A stretch of 64,000 nucleotides of DNA. Origin: Gemmatales bacterium (GTDB lineage: Bacteria; Planctomycetota; Planctomycetia; Gemmatales; HRBIN36). The notes under the pieces are model-generated. The model searched no databases. It was not told the origin of the DNA and saw only the letters and a list, made by a program, of their open reading frames with translations. The first letter of the stretch is position 1, and each line of letters opens with the position of its first letter. Both the position numbers and the translations under genes were made by a program. This document shows, piece by piece, positions 6,166-19,646 of the stretch. Location: positions 40,484 through 104,483 of the forward strand of contig JBEPZY010000008.1 of assembly GCA_041640595.1 (NCBI GenBank), in the 5' to 3' direction.

Positions 6166-7332
6166 TTATGACGAAAGTGGCGGAGCGACAGTTGAGCCGG
6201 GCAAAAAACGGTGGGGGCAAACGTGGTGCTCTGGAGCCCGCTGCGACGATGACGGAGAGCCAGGGGACTGCTGAATGCCCGCCGTACAGCTGCCTTGGTG
6301 CCGCAGCAAGATTTCTACGGCGAGGCGTCCCATGGTTTGCCAGTCAGCCTGATGACAGGTGAGTCCGGTTACACTTTCGCCGCCGCCACCAACGATGCTG
6401 AAGTCTTCGGGAACGCGATATTGGCGTGCCTGCAGTTCTTCGCAGACATATCGGGCCAGGGTGTTATTGAAACAGTAGAGTGCGGTGGGCCGCGGTCGTA
6501 AAGCCAGGAGTTGTTCAACAGCCTGGCGGGCACCGGAACGGTTGAGGGGTACGCCGATCTCCCAAGCTCGACGGTGTGGCAAACCTGCCTCCCGCAACCC
6601 GTCTCGATAACCGCGCAAGCGCCAGGGATTTAAGTCCTCGCGTCGCCAGTTTACGAAAGCGATCCGCCGATGTCCAAGTTGAACCAGGTGGGCTACGACA
6701 TCTTTGGCTGCCTGGTACGAATCATCGCGTACAGAATGAACCTGAACGCTGGGTAAATCGTGGTCCAGCAACACAATGGGCACGCCCAGTCCCAGCGCGG
6801 CTCGCACCACCTTTTCCTCGCCGAAAGAGGCGAAAATCAAACCGGCTGCTGGCATGGTCTGCAGCAGCTCCGATAACACCCGCTGAACTTGATGAATGGC
6901 CACCTGCCGGACCAGAAGTCCTATATTCTGTTCGCAGCAAGCCTGAAGTGCGCCCTGAAGCATAAGGCCACTAATAGTTTCGACGACACCTGTCTCAGAC
7001 AAAGGCGAGGCCGCGTAATCCGCTTGCAAATAAAAGAGCACCCGTGCCTTTTTCGCTGTCAGTCGTCTGAGCAAGCAAACCGGTTCGAGGAAAGTGCCGC
7101 GTCGCCGTATTTTTCGGATCAGACCTTCCTGCTGCAGACGGGCGCAAGCCAGGCGTACCGTTTCACGGCTAACGCCGAGTTGCTCGGCCAGCTCCGCCAG
7201 AGGGGGCAAACGTCCGCTGGCAAAATAACCATCAGCAATGGCTTGCCGTAACAAATGCTCTACCTGTGTCAGTAAACCTGGCGGGTGTTCGAGTCTTGGT
7301 AATTCTTGTGTGGGCCGTCTGGGTCTTGCCAT
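6166..7332 (-). CDS. GntR-HTH / LacI-type effector-binding transcriptional regulator (AraR-like architecture)
   Basis: N-terminal GntR wHTH (LPPLAELAEQLGVSRETVRLA...RRRGTF) plus a LacI sugar-binding domain (LGHRRIAF, RLRGY, VPEDFSIVG). Confidence 0.88.
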   Translation of the reverse strand: MARPRRPTQELPRLEHPPGLLTQVEHLLRQAIADGYFASGRLPPLAELAEQLGVSRETVRLACARLQQEGLIRKIRRRGTFLEPVCLLRRLTAKKARVLFYLQADYAASPLSETGVVETISGLMLQGALQACCEQNIGLLVRQVAIHQVQRVLSELLQTMPAAGLIFASFGEEKVVRAALGLGVPIVLLDHDLPSVQVHSVRDDSYQAAKDVVAHLVQLGHRRIAFVNWRREDLNPWRLRGYRDGLREAGLPHRRAWEIGVPLNRSGARQAVEQLLALRPRPTALYCFNNTLARYVCEELQARQYRVPEDFSIVGGGGESVTGLTCHQADWQTMGRLAVEILLRHQGSCTAGIQQSPGSPSSSQRAPEHHVCPHRFLPGSTVAPPLSS

Positions 7333-8661: not shown

Positions 8662-9957
8662 ATGATCCTGACACTGAACTTGGCGCTTTGCTGCACGTTG
8701 TCCTGTACGCTGGCAGCGAGTGAAGCGGATATCTTTCTGCCGGTGCATGAGGGACGGGATGCATACGAACCAGCCATAGCGTACGGCGATGGAGTTTATC
8801 TCGTGGTATGGAAGTCGGGACATCTGGCGCCAGGGGATCTGCGCGATGGCGTGAAATACCAGGGCGATATTGTGGGCTGCCGTCTGGATAGCTCGGGACG
8901 ATTGCTCGATAAGCAACCGGTTGTGATATGCGCGGCAAAAGATTTGCAGGAACGGCCGCGTGTTGCCTTCGGCGGTGGAGTGTTTTTAGTGGTCTGGCAA
9001 GACCTGCGCAATGGCAAGGACTGGGACGTGTACGCTGCCCGCATTACTCCCCAGGGCCGCGTACTGGACGCGGACGGGTTTGTGGTGAGCAACGCCCGGC
9101 ACAGCCAAGCATTGCCCGATGTTAGCTGGGATGGCCAGAACTTTCAAGTTGTCTGGCAGGATTTTCGTTCGGGAAAAAATTATGCCATCTACGGTGCGCG
9201 AGTTTCTCCCGATGGGAAAGTGTTAGAGGAAAATGGCCGATTGCTCACTAACGTACCGGAACCGTACAGCCGTTATGCCCCCGTGGCAGCAAGCATTCCT
9301 CAACAAGGAACACTGGTGTTCTGGTTAGCTGGTGGACGAGTCGGGGCGAAAAGCGGCAGTCCTGCTGGAGTGGTAGCAGGGGCGCACCTGCTTCGTGAGG
9401 GAGTCCCTGGCGATCAAGCTGTGTACGAAAACAGCTCCCATCAATCCGGGCCCGGCGGACCGACGGGACATCCAACCTTCCCACTGGGGATTGCAGCCGG
9501 ACCGCAACGATATCTGGTAGCGTGGACAACCCAATTGCCGTATGGCCGAGGAAATGCTCCAAACGATTCCCAGGCAGCGTTGTTCGATAGCCAGGGGAAA
9601 CTGCGGAAGATGTTTCTGCTGACGCAAGACCCGTCGGTACGGATCAGCCACCCGCGAGCGGTCTGGGCTGGCCAAATGTTTTGGGTGGTCTGGCATCAAA
9701 TTATGCCCGAACGAAACCAGGGCAATCTTTATCCCTTTGAAGCGATTTTTGCAGCACAGGTAACTGAGGATGGCGAAGTAAGGAACCGTCAACGGCTGGC
9801 TGGAACTGAATCAGCGCCGGCTCAAAAAGCCGCTATCGCCAGTGACGGTCGAGGCCAGGTTGTTATCGTTTACGAGCAGCATCCTGATAAGCCGGAGGTT
9901 CCCATTCGTGTCGGAGTGCGCATTCTTCATGCGGGTAACGGAGGCGAACCTCAGTGA
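8662..9957 (+). CDS. Secreted beta-rich repeat protein (paralog 1 of 3)
   Basis: Signal peptide; repeats of 'PxVAxxGxxFLVVWQDxRxGKxWDVYAARI'. Confidence 0.75.
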   Translation: MILTLNLALCCTLSCTLAASEADIFLPVHEGRDAYEPAIAYGDGVYLVVWKSGHLAPGDLRDGVKYQGDIVGCRLDSSGRLLDKQPVVICAAKDLQERPRVAFGGGVFLVVWQDLRNGKDWDVYAARITPQGRVLDADGFVVSNARHSQALPDVSWDGQNFQVVWQDFRSGKNYAIYGARVSPDGKVLEENGRLLTNVPEPYSRYAPVAASIPQQGTLVFWLAGGRVGAKSGSPAGVVAGAHLLREGVPGDQAVYENSSHQSGPGGPTGHPTFPLGIAAGPQRYLVAWTTQLPYGRGNAPNDSQAALFDSQGKLRKMFLLTQDPSVRISHPRAVWAGQMFWVVWHQIMPERNQGNLYPFEAIFAAQVTEDGEVRNRQRLAGTESAPAQKAAIASDGRGQVVIVYEQHPDKPEVPIRVGVRILHAGNGGEPQ

Positions 9958-10112
9958 AGGAAAATTGCCCGATATTCTCCAGGCTTCAAACTGCTGGAGG
10001 ATGAACGCCATCTAGCCAAAAAGGAAGTCACACAACTGGTGCGGCAAAGACAGGGCGAAGGTAAGCGGAACCTCGCCCTTGATAGTAACCCCCCGATAGA
10101 AGGAGGTGTCAC

Positions 10113-11399
10113 ATGCGTAGCCGCTTGCTAACTCGGATGGGATGGATGGCCGTATGGGCCGGTACCTGCCTGGTCGCCACAGCAGCAGAGCCGATTGCTC
10201 CGGACCAATTCGACCAACTGCGGCAGAAGATCAAACCGCAGGCGGGTGAATCGCGGTTCTGGGAAATCCCCTGGCTGCTGAGCCTGGACGAGGCATTGGT
10301 CAAGGCAGCCCAGGAGGGCAAGCCGATATTCGTTTGGTCTGGAGCAGGCGGACCGCCGCACACCGTGTGCTGAGCTGCGGGTTCTGGCGGCCGTGAGCCG
10401 TGCCTGTGGACCGAGGAAATCGTCAACCTGCTCAAGGAAAAGTTTGTGTGCGTCTCTGTAGATGCCCGCCGCGAATGGGCTCGCAAAGATGCCATCGGGG
10501 AAATGGTCCGCAAAACCCAGTGTGTGACCATCACCGCTAACGGGAAAACCAGCGTCATTACCGCCGATGGCAAAAAACTGGGCGACGTTATGTGGATCAA
10601 CGAAAGGCTGCGCATGAACAGTTTGAAGAAAATCCTGGCCGCCTGGGAAGCCCTGCCGGAAGAGGAACGCAAACCTGGCCGGAAAGTGGATTATGGCCCG
10701 CCTGATCCCAACCGTCCGCTGGTTCGGCCACCGGAAGGCACCCTCATACTTGCAGGGCAATTCCGCCGGTTCATGCGGAATCCGGACGGAACGCTGCGTT
10801 ATACCGAACAAGCAGACTACAACCCCGGCGAAGGCCAGAACGGCTGGCAGCGCTTGCGCGAACCCGCCCAGGATATGATGTGGATTCCTGAGAAAGAATG
10901 GCGTGCCTTGATCCCCGAATCGCCTCAAACAGGGCAGAGTATGCCGGCACCGCCCTCGTTTGTGGCTCGCCTGGCTCGTTACCAGCTCGATCCGGAACGG
11001 GGTCTTGGCGAAAGCGTCAAATTCTTGAATGTGCAACCCAGGCTTGCTGAGCTCACCATCACCGTAGATGAGGTCAGCGAGAAAGAACTACGCCTTCGAC
11101 TAACCGGTCAGTTCGACCTGGCCGTCCGCGAGGCAAACAAGGAAATCGCCTACGCCCCAGCCATTCTGGGTTACGTCACCTACGACCGGCAGGCCCGGCG
11201 GATTACACGCTTCGACCTGCTGGCCTTCGGGGAAGCGAATAACTCGCCCCGCGGTCTGATCACTGGCAAATACTGGTTGGGGATTGTCTATGAGCTGGTA
11301 GAGAAGCCAACGGAAGCCCAGCTTGTCTGGCCTCGCGGTGCGCGGGACGGACTGGCCCAGTATCTCGATCCCAGGCCCCTTGTGAAGGCATCCAAATGA
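10113..11399 (+). CDS. Candidate selenoprotein: secreted thioredoxin-fold protein with Cys-Sec (CU) motif, SelN-like; in-frame TGA at 10371-10373
   Basis: ORFs 10113-10373 and 10446-11399 are in the same frame with no other stop between them. The read-through product (428 aa) is colinear with the intact paralog 11396-12784. RBS aggagg; a hairpin follows the TGA. Confidence 0.7.
10380..10412 (+). promoter_or_regulatory. Putative bacterial SECIS hairpin
   Basis: GGTTC(10380-84) pairs with GGACC(10408-12). GCGGC(10387-91) pairs with GCCGT(10397-401) around the loop CGTGA, which starts 19 nt after the TGA. Confidence 0.5.
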
Positions 11400-12784
11400 A
11401 GCTCGTGAACCGTCAGTCTCCCGACAACGTGCCCAGCCGCCTCTATCATCAGGCGTCTGCTGCACGTCTCTTGCACCTGAAAACAGGTCAGGCGGGTCGC
11501 TCTTTTACAACGACCCGCCTGATCCCTGCACTTGCCTTATGCACGTTGACGGTATGGGTGATCACCGGTACACATGGCATCTGCGAGGACAAGCGTGTTT
11601 CTCCTGCGGAGCTTTCGTGGCAAACTTTTGACCAGCTGCACCGCTTCATCAAACCTCAACCTGGTGAATGCCGATTCTGGGAAGTGGAGTGGGAACTCGA
11701 TGTTGCTGCGGCCAGGGCACGGGCTGCCAAGGAAGCAAAGCCCCTGCTGGTACTTTCTGGCCATCGGGGTTCGCCTTTGGGCAACTGTCGCTGGTCGGTG
11801 GCTGCCGCACGCGACCCCGAAGTCTGGAACGAGACCTTCACTCGTCTGATTCGGGAAAGGTGTGTCGCTGTTACCATTCCCGATGCAGGCACTGCCCGCA
11901 AACGCACCGATTCCACTGGTGCTTTCCTGATCAAGGCGAATGTCGGCCAGACGGCACTGACTTCCAATTTTTGCATGGACGTTGTGACAGCTACCGGAGA
12001 ACATCTGGGAAGAATTCCGTTCAACACTCCCGGGGTCGCTTTGAAGTCTCTGCAAAACGCTCTCGATAAGTTTGCCGCACTCCCGGAAGACCGCAGACGA
12101 GGCAATGTACCAGAAGAGCAATCCGCTATTCCCGGCCCACCACCGGGTACCCTGATACTCCGAATCTATCTTCGCCAGTTAGGACGCAACCCGGATGGCA
12201 CGTTGCGATACACCGAACCAGGGGACTATACCGACAAAACCCCGATGCGAAATCGCGCCTTGTGTCGGCAACCTTTCGATGACTACATGTGGGTTACAGA
12301 AAAAGAGTGGAAAGCTCTGATCCCGGCCGAACCGGCGCCCGGTATGAAAGTTGTCATCCCTGAGTCGTTGCAGTTGCGCCTGTTGCGCTATCACCTGAAC
12401 CCGCGAGTAGGATTCACCGAAGGGCCATGCTTTGCCAGGGCTACGCTGAAAGACGGCAGCCTTCACGCCAAAGTGGAACAAGTGACCAACGAAGAGCTCC
12501 ATCTTCGGATAGAAGGTTCGGCCAAGTTGCATTTGGGAGATGACTTGAGTTTTACACCCACCATTCTGGGAAAGTTGGTGTTTGACCGAGCCCGCAAGCA
12601 GTTCAGGCAGTTTGACCTGGTTGCATTGGGGGATGTAACGGGCCATATCCAGCATGGTGGCGGTGGCTTTCGACCAGGCGCTCAGCCATTGGGCATAGCT
12701 TTCGAACTGATAACCAAGCCCAGACCAACAGACTTCCTGCCACCCGGTGGCCCTGGCGACCCCGGTTATCTCGACCCGAAATGA
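11396..12784 (+). CDS. Secreted thioredoxin-fold protein, uninterrupted paralog of 10113-11399
   Basis: Shared blocks KPQxGExRFWEVxW, PPxGTLIL, RNPDGTLRYTE, MWxxEKEWxALIP, RYxLxPxxGxxE, FDLxAxG, LGIxxEL. It has Cys-Arg where the upstream gene has Cys-TGA. Confidence 0.8.
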   Translation: MKLVNRQSPDNVPSRLYHQASAARLLHLKTGQAGRSFTTTRLIPALALCTLTVWVITGTHGICEDKRVSPAELSWQTFDQLHRFIKPQPGECRFWEVEWELDVAAARARAAKEAKPLLVLSGHRGSPLGNCRWSVAAARDPEVWNETFTRLIRERCVAVTIPDAGTARKRTDSTGAFLIKANVGQTALTSNFCMDVVTATGEHLGRIPFNTPGVALKSLQNALDKFAALPEDRRRGNVPEEQSAIPGPPPGTLILRIYLRQLGRNPDGTLRYTEPGDYTDKTPMRNRALCRQPFDDYMWVTEKEWKALIPAEPAPGMKVVIPESLQLRLLRYHLNPRVGFTEGPCFARATLKDGSLHAKVEQVTNEELHLRIEGSAKLHLGDDLSFTPTILGKLVFDRARKQFRQFDLVALGDVTGHIQHGGGGFRPGAQPLGIAFELITKPRPTDFLPPGGPGDPGYLDPK

Positions 12785-12855
12785 AGCCATCATCGCCAGC
12801 CCGCCCATCGTACTACCACGCCACGACATCCTGCCAGCAAGAAGGAGAATTGAGA

Positions 12856-13604
12856 ATGACGCAGCAGGGACCGACCATCAAGAGTTGGCAGTTCCGGAAG
12901 CTGAGGGGGCTACTGTTAGTGGCATTGTTTGCATTGGCGTCTGCGCTTGCGGGCGCCGCATTGGCCGCCGAGCCGACACAAAAGCGTTTTGTGATTGAGC
13001 ACTACGCATTAGCCGGTGCCGCGCTGTATGGTGCCATATTCTGGATGCTGCAGTCTGGGCCTTGGAGCTGGACAAAGCCCCCGCAATCACCGTGACATCG
13101 GAAGGTCCGCCGATCCACCCGGAGAGCACCCCCGCCTGGGCGATAGTCCGGTACACGTTCCCACCCCGCGAAAAACTTCCCGCGGTGACCGTTGTCTGGT
13201 ACCACGGCGGCAAGTTACCCCCGAAAGAGCTGGTTGGGGATTTCAAGTTGCCCAGTAACGGGTCGCTTTTCGTCGGCGAGAAAGGCAAACTGCTGGTTCC
13301 ACACGGTGGCTCATTACAGGTGTTCCCCCAGGAGCTTGGCGAAGAAGTGCAAAAGCTCCAATCCACCATTCCCGCACCTACCGCTGGTCATCATGGCGAA
13401 TGGCTGCAAGCCTGCAAAACCGGACAGGCGACAGGAAGCAATTTTGCCTACGCCGCCAGGTTGACTGAAATAGTCCAGTTGGGCAATGTTGCCTATCGTG
13501 TTGGAAAGGCCGTTGAGTGGGAAGTAGCTGCCATGAAAGCCAAAAATTGCCCCGAAGCCGAAGCTTTCGTTCGCCGTGACTATCGCAGGGGATGGACGCT
13601 TTGA
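12856..13604 (+). pseudogene. Chimeric remnant: 5' end of a secreted protein fused out of frame to the C-terminal part of a Gfo/Idh/MocA oxidoreductase
   Basis: RBS plus ATG 12856 encode a signal peptide (LLLVALFALASALAGAALA|AEP). From 13032 another frame reads CHILDAAVWALEL...WYHGG...GSLFVGEKG...HHGEWLQACK...YRRGWTL, typical of Gfo/Idh/MocA C-termini, with no NAD-binding domain. Confidence 0.7.
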
Positions 13605-13660: not shown

Positions 13661-14977
13661 GTGAAGTACAGTCGTGTGGGGCTGGTGGCTGCATGTGGTT
13701 TGTGCTTGCCGTTTCTTCTGGCAATGACGGCTCTGGCAAATGGCCAGCCGCAGGTCGAGCGAGTCATCGAAGTGGCGCCGCGATGCCCAGGCACACGGTC
13801 GCAAACCTGGGCGAGCCTTGCCTGGTCGCCTCAATCTCAGTGCTGGCTGGTGGCTTGGCGCGAGGGCTACTTGAACGAGGAAGTTTCCGACATCTGGTGT
13901 GCCCGCATCAGTGCCGACGGAAAAGCGCTCGACCCCGCTGGCATCCGCATCACCAGCGGGCCAGGCCTGAAAGACAAGCCACAGGTTGCTTCCGACGGTA
14001 CTGACTTTTTGGTGGTTTGGGAGGATTTGCGCAACGGCCGAGATTGGGACGTGTACGCTGCTCGAATTACCGCCCAGGGAAAGGTGCTCGACGCCAATGG
14101 ATTTGTCGTAGCCGGTGGACAACACAACCAGTGCCGTCCCGATGTCGGCTTTGCCGCCGACTTTTATTTGGTCGTTTGGCAAGAGTTTGTCGGTGATGGT
14201 ACTCCCAACACGCCGGGCAACGCTTATGTAGTTCGGGGCAAACGCGTCAGCAGCAACGGTAAACCAGCGGACGACCAGCCCATCGAAATTGCCAGAATAG
14301 AAAAGGAATCCCACGCTCTCAATCCGGTACTCGCCTGTCAAGAGTCCACTGCCCTGGTCGGTTTCACGGTGCGTGCATTCGCATCGGGCAACGATTATTT
14401 CGCGCGTCGGCCGATTGATGTCGCTAGCGGACGTGTTCTCGGCCCAACTCCAGAACCATCCCGAAACTCAGCCAAGCCCCCTATCCATCTGCCCGCTTCG
14501 GAGGGGGAAGCGCCGCGTCGTGGTGTTCTGGCCATCAACAAAGCCGGTGCGGTTACCGTGCTGCACGACAAGGTACACGGGGCCCAAGTTTGGAAGATGG
14601 CTGCGGATGGAAAAGACCCCCAATTAGTGGCTCGCCTTGCTGCTCCGAACAAGCAGTCCCGCACCGACACAAGTTACCCTGTCTGTCGAGCACTCGCCAG
14701 CGATGGCAACACATTTTTGCTGCTAGCAGAATGGCCTCAATTGCGGCAGGATGGTCGGGTGCGCATGCAAGTGCGTGGCTGGCGACTGGGGCCTGATGCC
14801 AAACCGCAGGATGATGCCGATACGGGATTTATCCTGGCTGCTGATGAACGGCGCGACCAACTCTCGCCAGCCGTGGCTGCCGGGCCGCAAGGTATCTTTC
14901 TGGCAGTCTGGTCAGAACGCCGGGGTCCTGACGACATCAAAGTGGTAGCCCGGCGGGTTTTGCTCGACGCCAAATGA
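13661..14977 (+). CDS. Secreted beta-rich repeat protein (paralog 2 of 3)
   Basis: RBS aaggagg plus GTG; signal peptide; 'FLVVWEDLRNGRDWDVYAARI' repeat. Confidence 0.78.
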   Translation: MKYSRVGLVAACGLCLPFLLAMTALANGQPQVERVIEVAPRCPGTRSQTWASLAWSPQSQCWLVAWREGYLNEEVSDIWCARISADGKALDPAGIRITSGPGLKDKPQVASDGTDFLVVWEDLRNGRDWDVYAARITAQGKVLDANGFVVAGGQHNQCRPDVGFAADFYLVVWQEFVGDGTPNTPGNAYVVRGKRVSSNGKPADDQPIEIARIEKESHALNPVLACQESTALVGFTVRAFASGNDYFARRPIDVASGRVLGPTPEPSRNSAKPPIHLPASEGEAPRRGVLAINKAGAVTVLHDKVHGAQVWKMAADGKDPQLVARLAAPNKQSRTDTSYPVCRALASDGNTFLLLAEWPQLRQDGRVRMQVRGWRLGPDAKPQDDADTGFILAADERRDQLSPAVAAGPQGIFLAVWSERRGPDDIKVVARRVLLDAK

Positions 14978-16531: not shown

Positions 16532-16556
16532 GGCCTAAAGCGAAGGAGTGGCATCC

Positions 16557-17897
16557 ATGCGCACGAAAAGGCTTTACCTGGCTCTTTACCCGATCGTCCT
16601 TGCGGCTCTCGGAGTCGCTCTCTATTGGATTTGTGGCGGTGAAGCGAAGCCTGCGGATACTTCGCAGCCTTCAGTAACGGTGGGTCGCCCAGTGGATGTG
16701 GCCCCGAAAGTGCCGGGCAGTCGAGCCCAGACCTGGGCTTCCCTGGCCTGGTCCGCTGGTGCCAATGCCTGGCTGGTGGCCTGGCGGGAAGGATGCCTCA
16801 ACGAATCGGCCACAGAAATCTGGTGCGCTCGTGTGGATGCGAATGGGCGGTCGCTGGACCCGGCCGGTATTCGAATCGCAGCGGGAAATGGTCTGCGCAG
16901 CCACGTGAAAGTAGCCTCGGATGGAAACGACTGGTTAGTCGTATGGGCCGACCTGGGAAATGGAAACGACTGGGACATCTATGGCTGCCTGGTGAGTGCC
17001 AACGGTCAGCCCTGCGACAAACCGTTCCTTATCGCCGGCGGGCAGGACAATCAATGTCAGCCTGCCGTGGCTTACGCCGGCGATTCCTATTACGTAGTCT
17101 GGGCCGGCTTTAGCGGTTCCGGACTGCCAAACACGCCGGGCAACGGTTACGGCCTTTATAAATGCCGCGTTTCCAAACAAGGCCGGGTGCTGGATTCGCC
17201 CGTCGAGTTGGTAAGCAACAAATCGTACCAGGCGAGCCATCCAATGATAGCCGCGGGCAAGGACAAGCTCGCAGTCGTCTTCATGGAAACTACACACATC
17301 AAGTGGGGCAAGAATGTCCTGAACTATGTGATTCTCGACGCCCAAACAGGCAAAATAGTGGCCGGGCCTCTCCCTCCTAGCACCGGCAACAATGACCGCC
17401 TGCTGGGAAACAAGGTTACCGCTCGCTGGGTACCGGTAGCCGCCATCGGGGATATGTTCCTGACCCTGGTAAGAGATGTGGAGTCCTTCGGTGGACGAAA
17501 TCCTTACGCGCCAACCTTCTGGACGCTAACATCCTCAGGAACCCTCAAGAAAACCGGGCTCAGCGTGGATGCTCTTATGGCGTCGAGAGTCTATTACGCG
17601 CCAGGTCATGTTGCACTAGCCTCCGACGGCCAGCGCTTCCTGTATGTTTCCGAAAGCCCCAAGAGCCGCAAGGACGCTAACCAGATGCAGATGGGCATTG
17701 TCGGTTGGGTGATCAATCGCGAGGGCAATCAACTTCTAGCCGGTGCGAGTAAAGGGGGTTTCCCAATTGCCGATGAGCCAGGCAAGGAACACATTTTACC
17801 GGCCGTTTGTTCCGGCCCGCAGAACACCTTCCTGGTAGTCAATAGCGAATTACGCGGCATAGACGATCTGAAACTGGTCGCCCGCATCGTCAAATAA
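16557..17897 (+). CDS. Secreted beta-rich repeat protein (paralog 3 of 3)
   Basis: N-terminal hydrophobic anchor; highly similar to 13661-14977 (QTWASLAWS, WLVAWREGxLNE, LDPAGIRI, PNTPGN). Confidence 0.78.
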   Translation: MRTKRLYLALYPIVLAALGVALYWICGGEAKPADTSQPSVTVGRPVDVAPKVPGSRAQTWASLAWSAGANAWLVAWREGCLNESATEIWCARVDANGRSLDPAGIRIAAGNGLRSHVKVASDGNDWLVVWADLGNGNDWDIYGCLVSANGQPCDKPFLIAGGQDNQCQPAVAYAGDSYYVVWAGFSGSGLPNTPGNGYGLYKCRVSKQGRVLDSPVELVSNKSYQASHPMIAAGKDKLAVVFMETTHIKWGKNVLNYVILDAQTGKIVAGPLPPSTGNNDRLLGNKVTARWVPVAAIGDMFLTLVRDVESFGGRNPYAPTFWTLTSSGTLKKTGLSVDALMASRVYYAPGHVALASDGQRFLYVSESPKSRKDANQMQMGIVGWVINREGNQLLAGASKGGFPIADEPGKEHILPAVCSGPQNTFLVVNSELRGIDDLKLVARIVK

Positions 17898-18009: not shown

Positions 18010-19287
18010 TCACGGGCCGAGGCGGTCTTTGCCGAGCCAGGGGCGTAAGGCTTCCGGCACGACTACGGAACCGTCCTGCTGCTGGTAGTTCTCCAGAATA
18101 GCGACGATGGCCCGGCTGACAGCAATGGCGGTGCCGTTGAGCGTGTGCACGAAGCGGGTGCCCTTCTGACCCGTCGGACGGTAGCGAATGTTAAGCCGGC
18201 GAGCCTGGTAATCGGTGCAGTTGGAAGTGCTGGTGACCTCCGCATACTCGCCGTGTTCGCCACGACCGGGCATCCACGCTTCCAGGTCGAATTTGCGGTA
18301 AGCCGGGCCGCCCAGTTCACCGGCACAGGTGTCCACTACCCGATAAGGAATGCCCAGTCCCTGAAACAGTTTCTCTTCGATGCGTAGAAGTTCCTGATGC
18401 CAGTGCTCGCTCTGTTCCGGTGTGCAGAAGACAAACATTTCCACTTTCGTGAACTGGTGCACGCGGAACAGTCCCCGGGTTTCCCGTCCTGGTGCGCCGG
18501 CTTCGGTACGGAAACAGTGCGACAGACCCACATAGCGAAGCGGCAGGCGTTTTTCTTCGAGAATCTGATCGCGGTGCATGCCGCCCAGTGTGATTTCCGC
18601 CGTGGCGATCAGGCACAAATCGGAGTTGGCAATACTGTATATCTGCGTCTCCGGGCCGCGGGGGATAAAACCGATTCCCTCGACAACTTCCGCTTTGGCC
18701 AGATCGGGAGTGATGATCGGCGTGAATCCTTCCGCCAGCAGCACGGAAAATGCGTACTGCACCAGAGCCAGTTCCAGCAAGGCACCCTCGTTTTTCAGGA
18801 AATAGAACTTCGGGCCGGTCACCGAGGACCCGGCTTCAAAATCTACCAGGTCGAGTTTTTCCGCGAGGGCCACGTGATCTTTGGGTCGGAAGGAAAAGCG
18901 GGGTGGTTCGCCCCAGGTGCGTATCACGCGGTTGTCTTCGGGGCGAGAGCCGGGCGGTGCATCGGGATGCGTCAGATTGGGAATGGTGTACAACACCGCT
19001 CGTAGGTCGGCTTCCACTTGCCGCAACTGTGCCTCCAACTCGCTGACTTTGGCGCGCAATTCTCGCCCTTCGTCAATGAGCTTTTGCCGACGCTGCGGGT
19101 CTTTTTCCGCACCGGTTTGTTTTTGCAATTCGTTCTGCCGCTGATGCAGTAACTGCACTTCGCGGGTCAGTTGCTTCCGCTGCTGATACAAAGCCACGGC
19201 TCGGTCAACGTCAGCGTGGACGTTGCGTCGGCGGCAATTTTCTTTCACCAGGTCGGCGTTTTCCGCGACAAATTGCGGATCGAGCAT
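18010..19287 (-). CDS. serS: Serine--tRNA ligase
   Basis: MLDPQFV start; TAE, FRTEAG, GLFRVHQFTKVE, STSNCTDYQARRL and HTLNGT motifs. Confidence 0.98.
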   Translation of the reverse strand: MLDPQFVAENADLVKENCRRRNVHADVDRAVALYQQRKQLTREVQLLHQRQNELQKQTGAEKDPQRRQKLIDEGRELRAKVSELEAQLRQVEADLRAVLYTIPNLTHPDAPPGSRPEDNRVIRTWGEPPRFSFRPKDHVALAEKLDLVDFEAGSSVTGPKFYFLKNEGALLELALVQYAFSVLLAEGFTPIITPDLAKAEVVEGIGFIPRGPETQIYSIANSDLCLIATAEITLGGMHRDQILEEKRLPLRYVGLSHCFRTEAGAPGRETRGLFRVHQFTKVEMFVFCTPEQSEHWHQELLRIEEKLFQGLGIPYRVVDTCAGELGGPAYRKFDLEAWMPGRGEHGEYAEVTSTSNCTDYQARRLNIRYRPTGQKGTRFVHTLNGTAIAVSRAIVAILENYQQQDGSVVVPEALRPWLGKDRLGP

Positions 19288-19646
19288 GCTGAGCTCCTGC
19301 TTCAGTTGGCCAGTCGAGCAAAAATAAAACCAGTCGGCGTGCGGCAGCAAGTCTCCATGGGACGTATGCACCGGCTGTATGGTATGGACGCTGTCAAACA
19401 AGTATTAGCTCGATCGCAGCAACCCGGCCAGTCAAGGTGGCGGCGAAAAACAAACCTGCTGCATGTGCCGGGCCTGTGCAAAGCTATTTTCCACCGAGGA
19501 GAGTTTCCCCTGGTTACCGGTTTTCGGTGGATGAAGATTCGCCGGATTGGTCTGGAACGGCAAGGGCAACGCATATATACTTAAATGTGCCGGCAAGCCC
19601 GGTGGTAAGGCTTGCGAATTTCGATTAGCCAGGCTTGTCCGGTTGG

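Follow-up and report, generated by a model that had tools for sequence, protein, structure and literature searches.

Does the stretch between positions 10113 and 11399 of this planctomycete DNA hold two short genes or one selenoprotein gene that is interrupted by a recoded stop codon? The DNA in question (the window) is 64,000 nt long and stems from a Gemmatales bacterium (Planctomycetota; GenBank assembly GCA_041640595.1, contig JBEPZY010000008.1, positions 40,484 to 104,483 of the forward strand), and all positions given here refer to the whole window and not to the feature itself. An earlier note, made from the letters of this DNA alone, had described two open reading frames (ORFs) lying in one frame and joined by a single TGA, and had suggested a hidden, exported selenoprotein with an adjacent pair of cysteine (Cys) and selenocysteine (Sec) resembling eukaryotic selenoprotein N (SELENON). 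The description is exact, as the ORF list and the translation place an ORF of 86 aa starting with ATG (10113-10373) and one of 317 aa starting with GTG (10446-11399) in the same frame, with TGC TGA read directly at 10368-10373. Translation of 10113-11399 with TGA as U yields a single 428-residue chain with no stop besides the terminal TGA and with the residues ...PPHTVCUAAGSGGREPCLWTEEIVNLLKEKFV... around the site; an AAGGAGG (10100-10106) is located 7 nt 5′ of the ATG. The read-through product is also, as had been stated, colinear with the intact neighbouring paralog (ORF 11396-12784): a single alignment of 396 residues (query 33-421; 35% identity, E 7e-70) passes right through the TGA. It is very likely that Sec is encoded at 10371-10373, and we hold with good confidence that a single gene at 10113-11399 encodes a secreted selenoprotein of 428 residues with the decoding, export and chemistry proposed below; the specific chemistry of Cys86-Sec87, argued by analogy, is less certain than the encoding of Sec.

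The TGA is conserved among homologs. When 32 related loci were fetched from public genomes and translated with TGA shown as U, the N-terminal family motif, [VAGDST]-C-U-[ATSQN]-x-G..GR, was matched 33 times (26 loci and the window), with one match cut off by the end of its locus. Cys-TGA stands at the aligned column in 30 of the 32 readable copies and Cys-Arg in the remaining two, which are the window paralog and its counterpart in locus L009, where the same tandem of a Sec copy and a Cys-Arg copy is found. Chance cannot plausibly account for a TGA kept at this spot, right behind Cys, in 29 homologous copies that come from 26 other loci and share as little as 30-35% identity with the window protein. 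The motif regular expression found nothing in six loci (L007, L015, L033, L035-L037), three of which are partial matches, and the genome holding L015 contains a full-length match with one TGA. A survey of 401 sampled genomes of the window's phylum (family match at E <= 1e-10; 150 rows listed, 47 more beyond) revealed the family in 117 of them. Profile position 87 is covered by 116 of the 150 matches listed; 112 of these have a TGA in frame and four have none, and the matches carry a single internal TGA, not many.

The same column also marks the point at which database entries of this family break off. A protein search yielded 37 homologs, 35 of which cover at most 77% of the query and start past the TGA column, while only two are full length, with T-S or C-R at the site. 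The entries are either pieces of ~85-140 aa ending at the Cys or pieces of ~310-330 aa starting after the TGA, which bears out the suspicion that standard gene callers split the gene. When the N-terminal domain was used as the profile of an exhaustive search, 1023 cluster representatives came up at E <= 0.001, and 274 of them at <= 1e-10. Of the best 150 of these 1023, 115 have fewer than 260 aa, and 101 of the 115 stop exactly before the Sec column, the last residue being C in 63, T in 30 and one of V, A, I and S in the other 8. Since these short representatives end right before the column, the position of Sec is fixed across a large superfamily.

The observation that gene callers read the locus as two ORFs would equally fit a UGA that terminates, giving rise to two products, a secreted peptide of 86 aa and a protein of 317 aa that starts at the GTG at 10446, and the Arg (CGC) of the close paralog at this column would fit a recent nonsense mutation, CGA to TGA being a single step. 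Such an explanation is highly improbable and already contradicted by the TGA being kept at low identity and in nearly all spanning matches listed. Between the TGA and the annotated GTG start, the sequence is moreover conserved as protein, with R94 and W99 invariant in the 27 sequences of a full-length alignment (A2), and is continuous in Sec-free relatives; a covarying hairpin and the co-occurrence of the family with SelA, both described in the following, speak against termination as well.

A GC-rich hairpin is found shortly 3′ of the UGA in every copy. According to a 2026 review, the consensus of the bacterial selenocysteine insertion sequence (bSECIS) comprises an apical loop of 3-9 nt, a stem of >=4 bp, a distance of 16-37 nt from the UGA and a free energy (dG) of <= -7.5, and also asks for a G in the first two loop positions (PMC13188914). 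In the window, the upper stem pairs 10387-10391 with 10397-10401 and encloses the apical loop CGUGA (10392-10396), which starts 18 nt after the UGA (dG -11.9 kcal/mol); this hairpin agrees with all four bSECIS criteria. A lower stem (10375-10382 / 10402-10409) is predicted for the window sequence only. Agreement with the four criteria was found at 27 of 29 UGAs compared with 21 of 168 control in-frame positions of the same genes. In a covariation count of the 22 sequences with a common register, 94.7% of cells were paired compared with 81.1% in column shuffles, none of the 500 shuffles reaching the former value, and sliding of the 3′ arm lowered pairing to 32-53%. Two pairs are compensatory, one occurring as CG 12, UG 4, GU 3, AU 1 and GC 1, the other as CG 9, GC 4, GU 4, AU 3 and UG 1. 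Six sequences (L022-L026, L028), which form GGAGGCC-GGGC-GGCCUCC one register off, were left out of this count. The Arg paralog, examined at the same position, has no such hairpin.

The machinery for Sec decoding was looked for in the genome, which is 95.5% complete, and SelA, SelB, SelD and the tRNA for Sec (tRNA-Sec) are all present. SelA and SelB lie side by side on contig 2, tRNA-Sec with the anticodon tca is on contig 1, and SelD is itself encoded with Sec, by an in-frame TGA in ...CAGUAGKLP... (G000 contig C1:725715-726641, minus strand, locus L003). The SelD frame holds its TGA in GUAGK and Sec decoding is therefore in use; for comparison, a UxxK motif is listed for SelD in the review (PMC13188914). 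Like the gene studied here, that of SelD would be cut short by gene callers at its TGA. SelA occurs in 290 of the 401 phylum genomes and in 114 of the 117 family-positive ones, numbers which stem from cross-reading two lists of genomes that are related and not independent. The three family-positive genomes without SelA are G148, with a C-terminal match only and no TGA, G303 (86% complete) and G336 (67% complete). A UGA that is reassigned, or generally read through as an ordinary amino acid, would leave the frame open under any such code, with nothing specific in its favour. Given that this very gene terminates at a TGA, that the Sec machinery is present, that relatives have Cys and not Trp or Gly at the column and that the matches contain a single internal TGA and not many, such a code is next to inconceivable.

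Independent sequence also supports the TGA. The window stretch is found in hot-spring metagenomes from many studies, and contigs from one independent DNA run and from three metatranscriptome runs bridge 10371-10373, where none of the differences listed is located; 14 weaker differences fall outside this listing.

To which type of protein the site belongs is indicated by the predicted structure. AlphaFold2 on the 27-sequence alignment yielded a model with a mean predicted local distance difference test score (pLDDT) of 90.9 and a predicted template modelling score (pTM) of 0.88, in which residues 1-21, the presumed signal peptide, alone are disordered (pLDDT <50) and a thioredoxin (Trx)-fold domain is followed by a beta-rich domain (Table 1). 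Cys86-Sec87 is located just ahead of helix 88-93, the first helix of the Trx fold, at its N-terminus, and in a profile search against the sequences of the PDB the CHWC of 3ira came to lie with its first Cys on Cys86 (E 0.11). Because of this alignment and the placement before the helix, the C-U pair can be assigned to the classical redox position, in agreement with what the earlier note had proposed. Foldseek linked the model to the Thioredoxin_7/DsbH-type group with a probability of 0.99-1.0, but with E values of merely ~5e-3. In an Atlas look-up, the paralog domain fell into unnamed clusters of the Planctomycetes-Verrucomicrobia-Chlamydiae (PVC) group only, some of them with Thioredoxin_7 (best score 0.87). 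For the window protein, neither NCBIfam (0 families at E <= 1) nor a PDB sequence search with the single protein (0 hits) yielded any match. Members of the Thioredoxin_7/DsbH-type folds (DsbD C-terminal-like, DsbH, AGR2/AGR3, UAS) use CxxC, in contrast to the vicinal C-U observed here. The window protein also differs from them by ~10 residues between strand 1 (72-77) and the motif and by the fusion to an extra beta domain of 230 residues. The N-terminal signal-peptide-like segment named in the earlier note is present on inspection, and hydrophobic N-termini of a similar kind stand at the start of all homologs.

Table 1. Features of the selenoprotein locus; positions are those of the window.
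Feature	Position	Strand	Remarks
Full coding sequence of the probable selenoprotein	10113..11399	+	428 residues, Sec = residue 87, terminal TGA 11397-11399
Signal-peptide-like N-terminus (MRSRLLTRMGWMAVWAGTCLVATAA)	10113..10187	+	basic start, hydrophobic core, small residues before likely cut site
Trx-fold domain, Thioredoxin_7/DsbH/AGR/UAS type	10245..10667	+	residues ~45-185, predicted from the model
Cys86 codon TGC, vicinal partner of Sec	10368..10370	+	kept in at least 90% of A2 rows
UGA very likely read as Sec87	10371..10373	+	conserved after Cys across copies; Cys at this column in distant relatives
SECIS-like stem-loop	10375..10409	+	fold, bSECIS criteria, upper-stem covariation
C-terminal beta-rich domain	10695..11396	+	residues 195-428; long antiparallel strands
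Tandem paralog without Sec	11396..12784	+	Cys-Arg (TGT CGC, 11786-11791) at the C-U position

These observations are consistent with the following mechanism. SelB with Sec-tRNA(Sec) would dock on the short GC-rich hairpin, the loop of which lies 18 nt downstream, the ribosome would read the UGA at 10371-10373 as Sec, and translation would run on to the TGA at 11397. The N-terminal signal peptide would then export the protein from the cytoplasm. There, by analogy with the GCUG motif of thioredoxin reductase, Sec87 may act as the reactive nucleophile and Cys86 may resolve it to a vicinal selenenylsulfide. The protein would then work outside the cytoplasm as a thiol/selenol oxidoreductase, most probably as a reductase, with the C-terminal beta domain possibly holding the substrate or a partner.

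The variants of the family bear on this proposed chemistry. Of the 30 fragments ending in T, most have a Cys one to three residues before the T (mostly G-C-T, also A-C-H-T and C-A-P-T), and the partner Cys is found 1, 2, 3 or 4 residues before Sec or is absent, while the Sec column itself is constant. Among the representatives P0070-P0186, ends just before the stop read G-C-T, A-C-H-T, C-A-P-T or, lacking Cys, G-M-T and G-R-A. Judged from such fragment ends, this domain would also exist with C-x-U, C-x-x-U or C-x-x-x-U, or with Sec and no Cys. Of the best 150 of the 1023 representatives, 22 are long proteins, and in an alignment of these nine had Cys at the Sec column (G-C-T-C, T-T-C, S-C). 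The Cys form G-C-T-C mirrors the G-C-T-U fragments, and other long relatives have lost both residues. Sec-free relatives of the two-domain module are also fused behind a transmembrane segment to Ser/Thr kinases (four), to sigma-70 factors of the extracytoplasmic function (ECF) type with sigma-70 regions 2 and 4 (three) and to FecR-type proteins (two; the nine proteins are P0041, P0045, P0053, P0056, P0104, P0117, P0121, P0147 and P0156). From its place in these sequences, the module appears to serve in addition as an extracytoplasmic sensor-type domain.

On the basis of these kinase and sigma fusions and of the wandering partner Cys, which in sister subfamilies is movable or missing, a binding or sensing role has to be considered as a serious alternative. 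The Sec module would then bind or sense, for example, a metal, metalloid or oxidant and would not be a catalytic oxidoreductase, and the standalone proteins would be periplasmic sensors or carriers, which would also be in line with several known bacterial C-U selenoproteins being metal-related, as listed in Table 1 of the review (PMC13188914). We regard this as possible but rather unlikely, as Sec occupies exactly the thioredoxin redox position, a Cys within one to four residues of Sec is the rule (C is the last residue of 63 fragments, and a Cys is close by in most of the 30 ending in T), and searches against Pfam and NCBIfam matched no metal-binding family.

Several observations weigh against the selenoprotein and oxidoreductase reading as a whole and have to be set beside the evidence for it. 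As to the hairpin, the 76-nt fold of the window sequence (10365-10440) is not unusually stable (z 0.81, 154 of 200 shuffles being as good), and RNAalifold on the mixed alignment of 28 sequences yielded just 4 pairs (-1.05 kcal/mol). The latter method is nearly blind on these 28 sequences because the subgroup of L022-L026 and L028 pairs one register off. Single-sequence folding gave no signal, and the argument for the hairpin is one from covariation. Concerning the fold, the Pfam scores for Thioredox_DsbH (PF03190) and Thioredoxin_7 (PF13899) are below the gathering threshold (15.3 and 14.4 bits; cut-off 27), so that the assignment depends on the predicted model; the fold class is shared and membership in these Pfam families as defined is not. 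The nearest Sec-free relatives have Arg, Ser or Asp and not Cys at the Sec column, and the relatives that do have Cys there are just 21-28% identical overall. Catalysis by a Cys-Sec pair is not assured, as some relatives have no nearby Cys and the Sec-free forms are sensor-like. Contigs from RNA libraries that cover the gene do not prove its transcription. Insertion of selenium is what we infer from the conserved TGA, the hairpin and the machinery, and export is suggested by a signal-peptide-like segment that was assigned by eye from the sequence.

Selenoproteins with a Trx fold or with a vicinal C-U pair are known from bacteria. The 2026 review lists 119 families of prokaryotic selenoproteins along with their domain models, and none of its entries fits the window protein (PMC13188914). 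Trx-fold families in this catalogue use UxxC, CxxU, UGC, CxU or UxC, and its C-U entries SaoL, SaoC, HgcA, MbdU, KCU-star and a 2Fe-2S protein have other folds (PMC13188914). Membership of the window protein in SaoL, SaoC, HgcA, MbdU, KCU-star or Csac_0668 is not indicated, as no NCBIfam match was obtained. BSepDB was built from these known families. With bacterial Trx-type selenoproteins (Trx, DsbA-like, DsbG-like, TlpA-like UGC, Trx-like Sec.1/Sec.2) and with the C-U selenoproteins, the window protein has in common an in-ORF bSECIS directly after the UGA, a redox-type motif, Cys-containing homologs and database entries truncated at Sec; none of their NCBIfam or Pfam models matches it, and its Sec form is dominant (112 of 116 spanning matches listed). 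It is hence a bacterial Trx-fold selenoprotein with an in-ORF SECIS, but one in which C and U are vicinal, the second domain is new and Sec is used almost exclusively. No description of the family was found in full-text literature searches. A table (S9) of a 2016 planctomycete genome paper contains one 'hypothetical' candidate selenoprotein that might belong to it. All in all, the family is real and widespread, absent from the catalogues checked and apparently undescribed.

A chemical precedent for the pair, mammalian thioredoxin reductase with its C-terminal GCUG, likewise has a vicinal Cys-Sec able to form a selenenylsulfide, and this chemistry is established knowledge. The GCUG motif is also quoted in a paper on SELENON (PMC12839072). 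In thioredoxin reductase, however, the pair forms the penultimate C-terminal tail of a flavoenzyme, whereas in the window protein it is internal, within a Trx fold, and there is no flavin domain.

The resemblance to SELENON, from which the earlier note had taken its comparison, applies in outline. For SELENON, the literature gives an SCUG motif with Sec458/462 and a pathogenic p.Arg466Gln, which places an Arg at U+4 (PMC12839072), a predicted Trx domain around Sec that faces the lumen of the endoplasmic reticulum (ER), with no solved structure (PMC7474598), and an RNA stem-loop just 3′ of the UGA that promotes Sec insertion (PMC8704476). Both proteins thus have an adjacent Cys-Sec, a predicted Trx domain, a location on the non-cytosolic side and a hairpin after the UGA, and by this analogy the window protein may work like SELENON in outline. 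SELENON, on the other hand, is a 70-kDa, membrane-anchored ER protein with an EF-hand and with Sec near the C-terminus, and it depends on a SECIS in the 3′-untranslated region. The window protein has its Trx domain first, with Sec at residue 87 of 428, a cleavable-looking signal peptide and an in-ORF hairpin; a Pfam scan found no EF-hand family or membrane anchor, and the SELENON layout of membrane anchor, EF-hand and C-terminal Trx/Sec domain is not present. The C-U core is shared, but S-C-U-G in SELENON stands against V-C-U-A in the window protein, which does not contain the former motif; the residue after Sec is A, T, S, Q or N and never Gly in the 30 copies. Likewise, SELENON has its documented Arg at U+4, whereas the invariant Arg of the family is at U+7.

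That the Trx domain is nevertheless a true relative of that of SELENON, making the protein a bacterial SelN-like one in addition to what is proposed above, would fit the shared outline and is in our view unlikely. Differences in domain order, the lack of EF-hand and anchor matches and the residues at U+1, U+4 and U+7 argue against it. SelN was found neither among the best 150 of the 1023 profile matches nor in a word-based search with a wider alignment (A7), which returned 33 proteins, all unnamed or 'hypothetical', nor in the Atlas look-up of the paralog domain, none of which is evidence of absence. The literature searched contained nothing joining 'selenoprotein N' with 'UAS domain', and the PDB holds no SELENON entry. 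Going further, the Planctomycetota family could be the prokaryotic sister or source of the SELENON Trx module and the 'selenocysteine redefinition element' of SELENON a relic of a bacterial in-ORF SECIS, which is distinctly unlikely. If it were true, the family would make a human myopathy protein accessible to work in a bacterial model and would serve as a template for its structure, and any true SelN link would give the first bacterial handle on selenoprotein N chemistry.

Concerning genomic context, the ATG of the Arg paralog overlaps the stop of the selenoprotein gene (ATGA), and the two therefore probably form one operon. Both lie within a same-strand run of apparently secreted proteins of unassigned family. 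Three paralogous ORFs on the plus strand (8662-9957, 13661-14977 and 16548-17897) encode apparently secreted proteins of ~430-450 aa that are 31-39% identical, and Pfam assigned no family to any of them. Upstream of this run, a divergent gene (6166-7332, minus strand) encodes a regulator with a GntR-type helix-turn-helix and a LacI-like periplasmic-binding domain. The neighbourhood is not conserved, flanking genes being common to the closest locus, L006, only, and for this reason no partner can be inferred from context; the sole recurring arrangement is tandem duplication of the family (L009, L026, L027, L031, L034). Further along the plus strand, a 104-aa ORF with a signal-like start (12781-13095) overlaps a 180-aa ORF in another frame (13062-13604), the similarity of which is limited to the C-terminal end of Gfo/Idh/MocA oxidoreductases (E 3.6e-4, below the cut-off). 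From the sequence, 12781-13604 appears to be an oxidoreductase gene that has undergone a frameshift or a truncation. A gene for seryl-tRNA synthetase, the enzyme that also charges tRNA-Sec, is located 6.6 kb downstream (18010-19401, minus strand), with no sign that its proximity exceeds coincidence.

The family is large and centred on Planctomycetota. Members were also seen in metagenome-assembled genomes labelled Terriglobia, Alcaligenaceae and Akkermansiaceae (loci L008, L012 and L017; genome G402). In the phylum of G402, which carries the Akkermansiaceae label, the family is present in one of 201 genomes, namely G402 itself, and occurrences outside Planctomycetota may for that reason be binning errors or rare transfers.

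As a consequence of the internal TGA, the whole family is mis-annotated systematically as pairs of 'hypothetical' fragments, and its recognition would add one of the larger bacterial families to the catalogue of 119 and correct the selenoproteomes of Planctomycetota. With Sec fixed and the partner Cys wandering, the family represents a natural experiment on what Sec does beyond Cys in an oxidising extracytoplasmic setting. The Sec-free fusions to kinases, ECF sigma factors and anti-sigma-type proteins point to an undescribed periplasmic module for redox sensing or redox repair.

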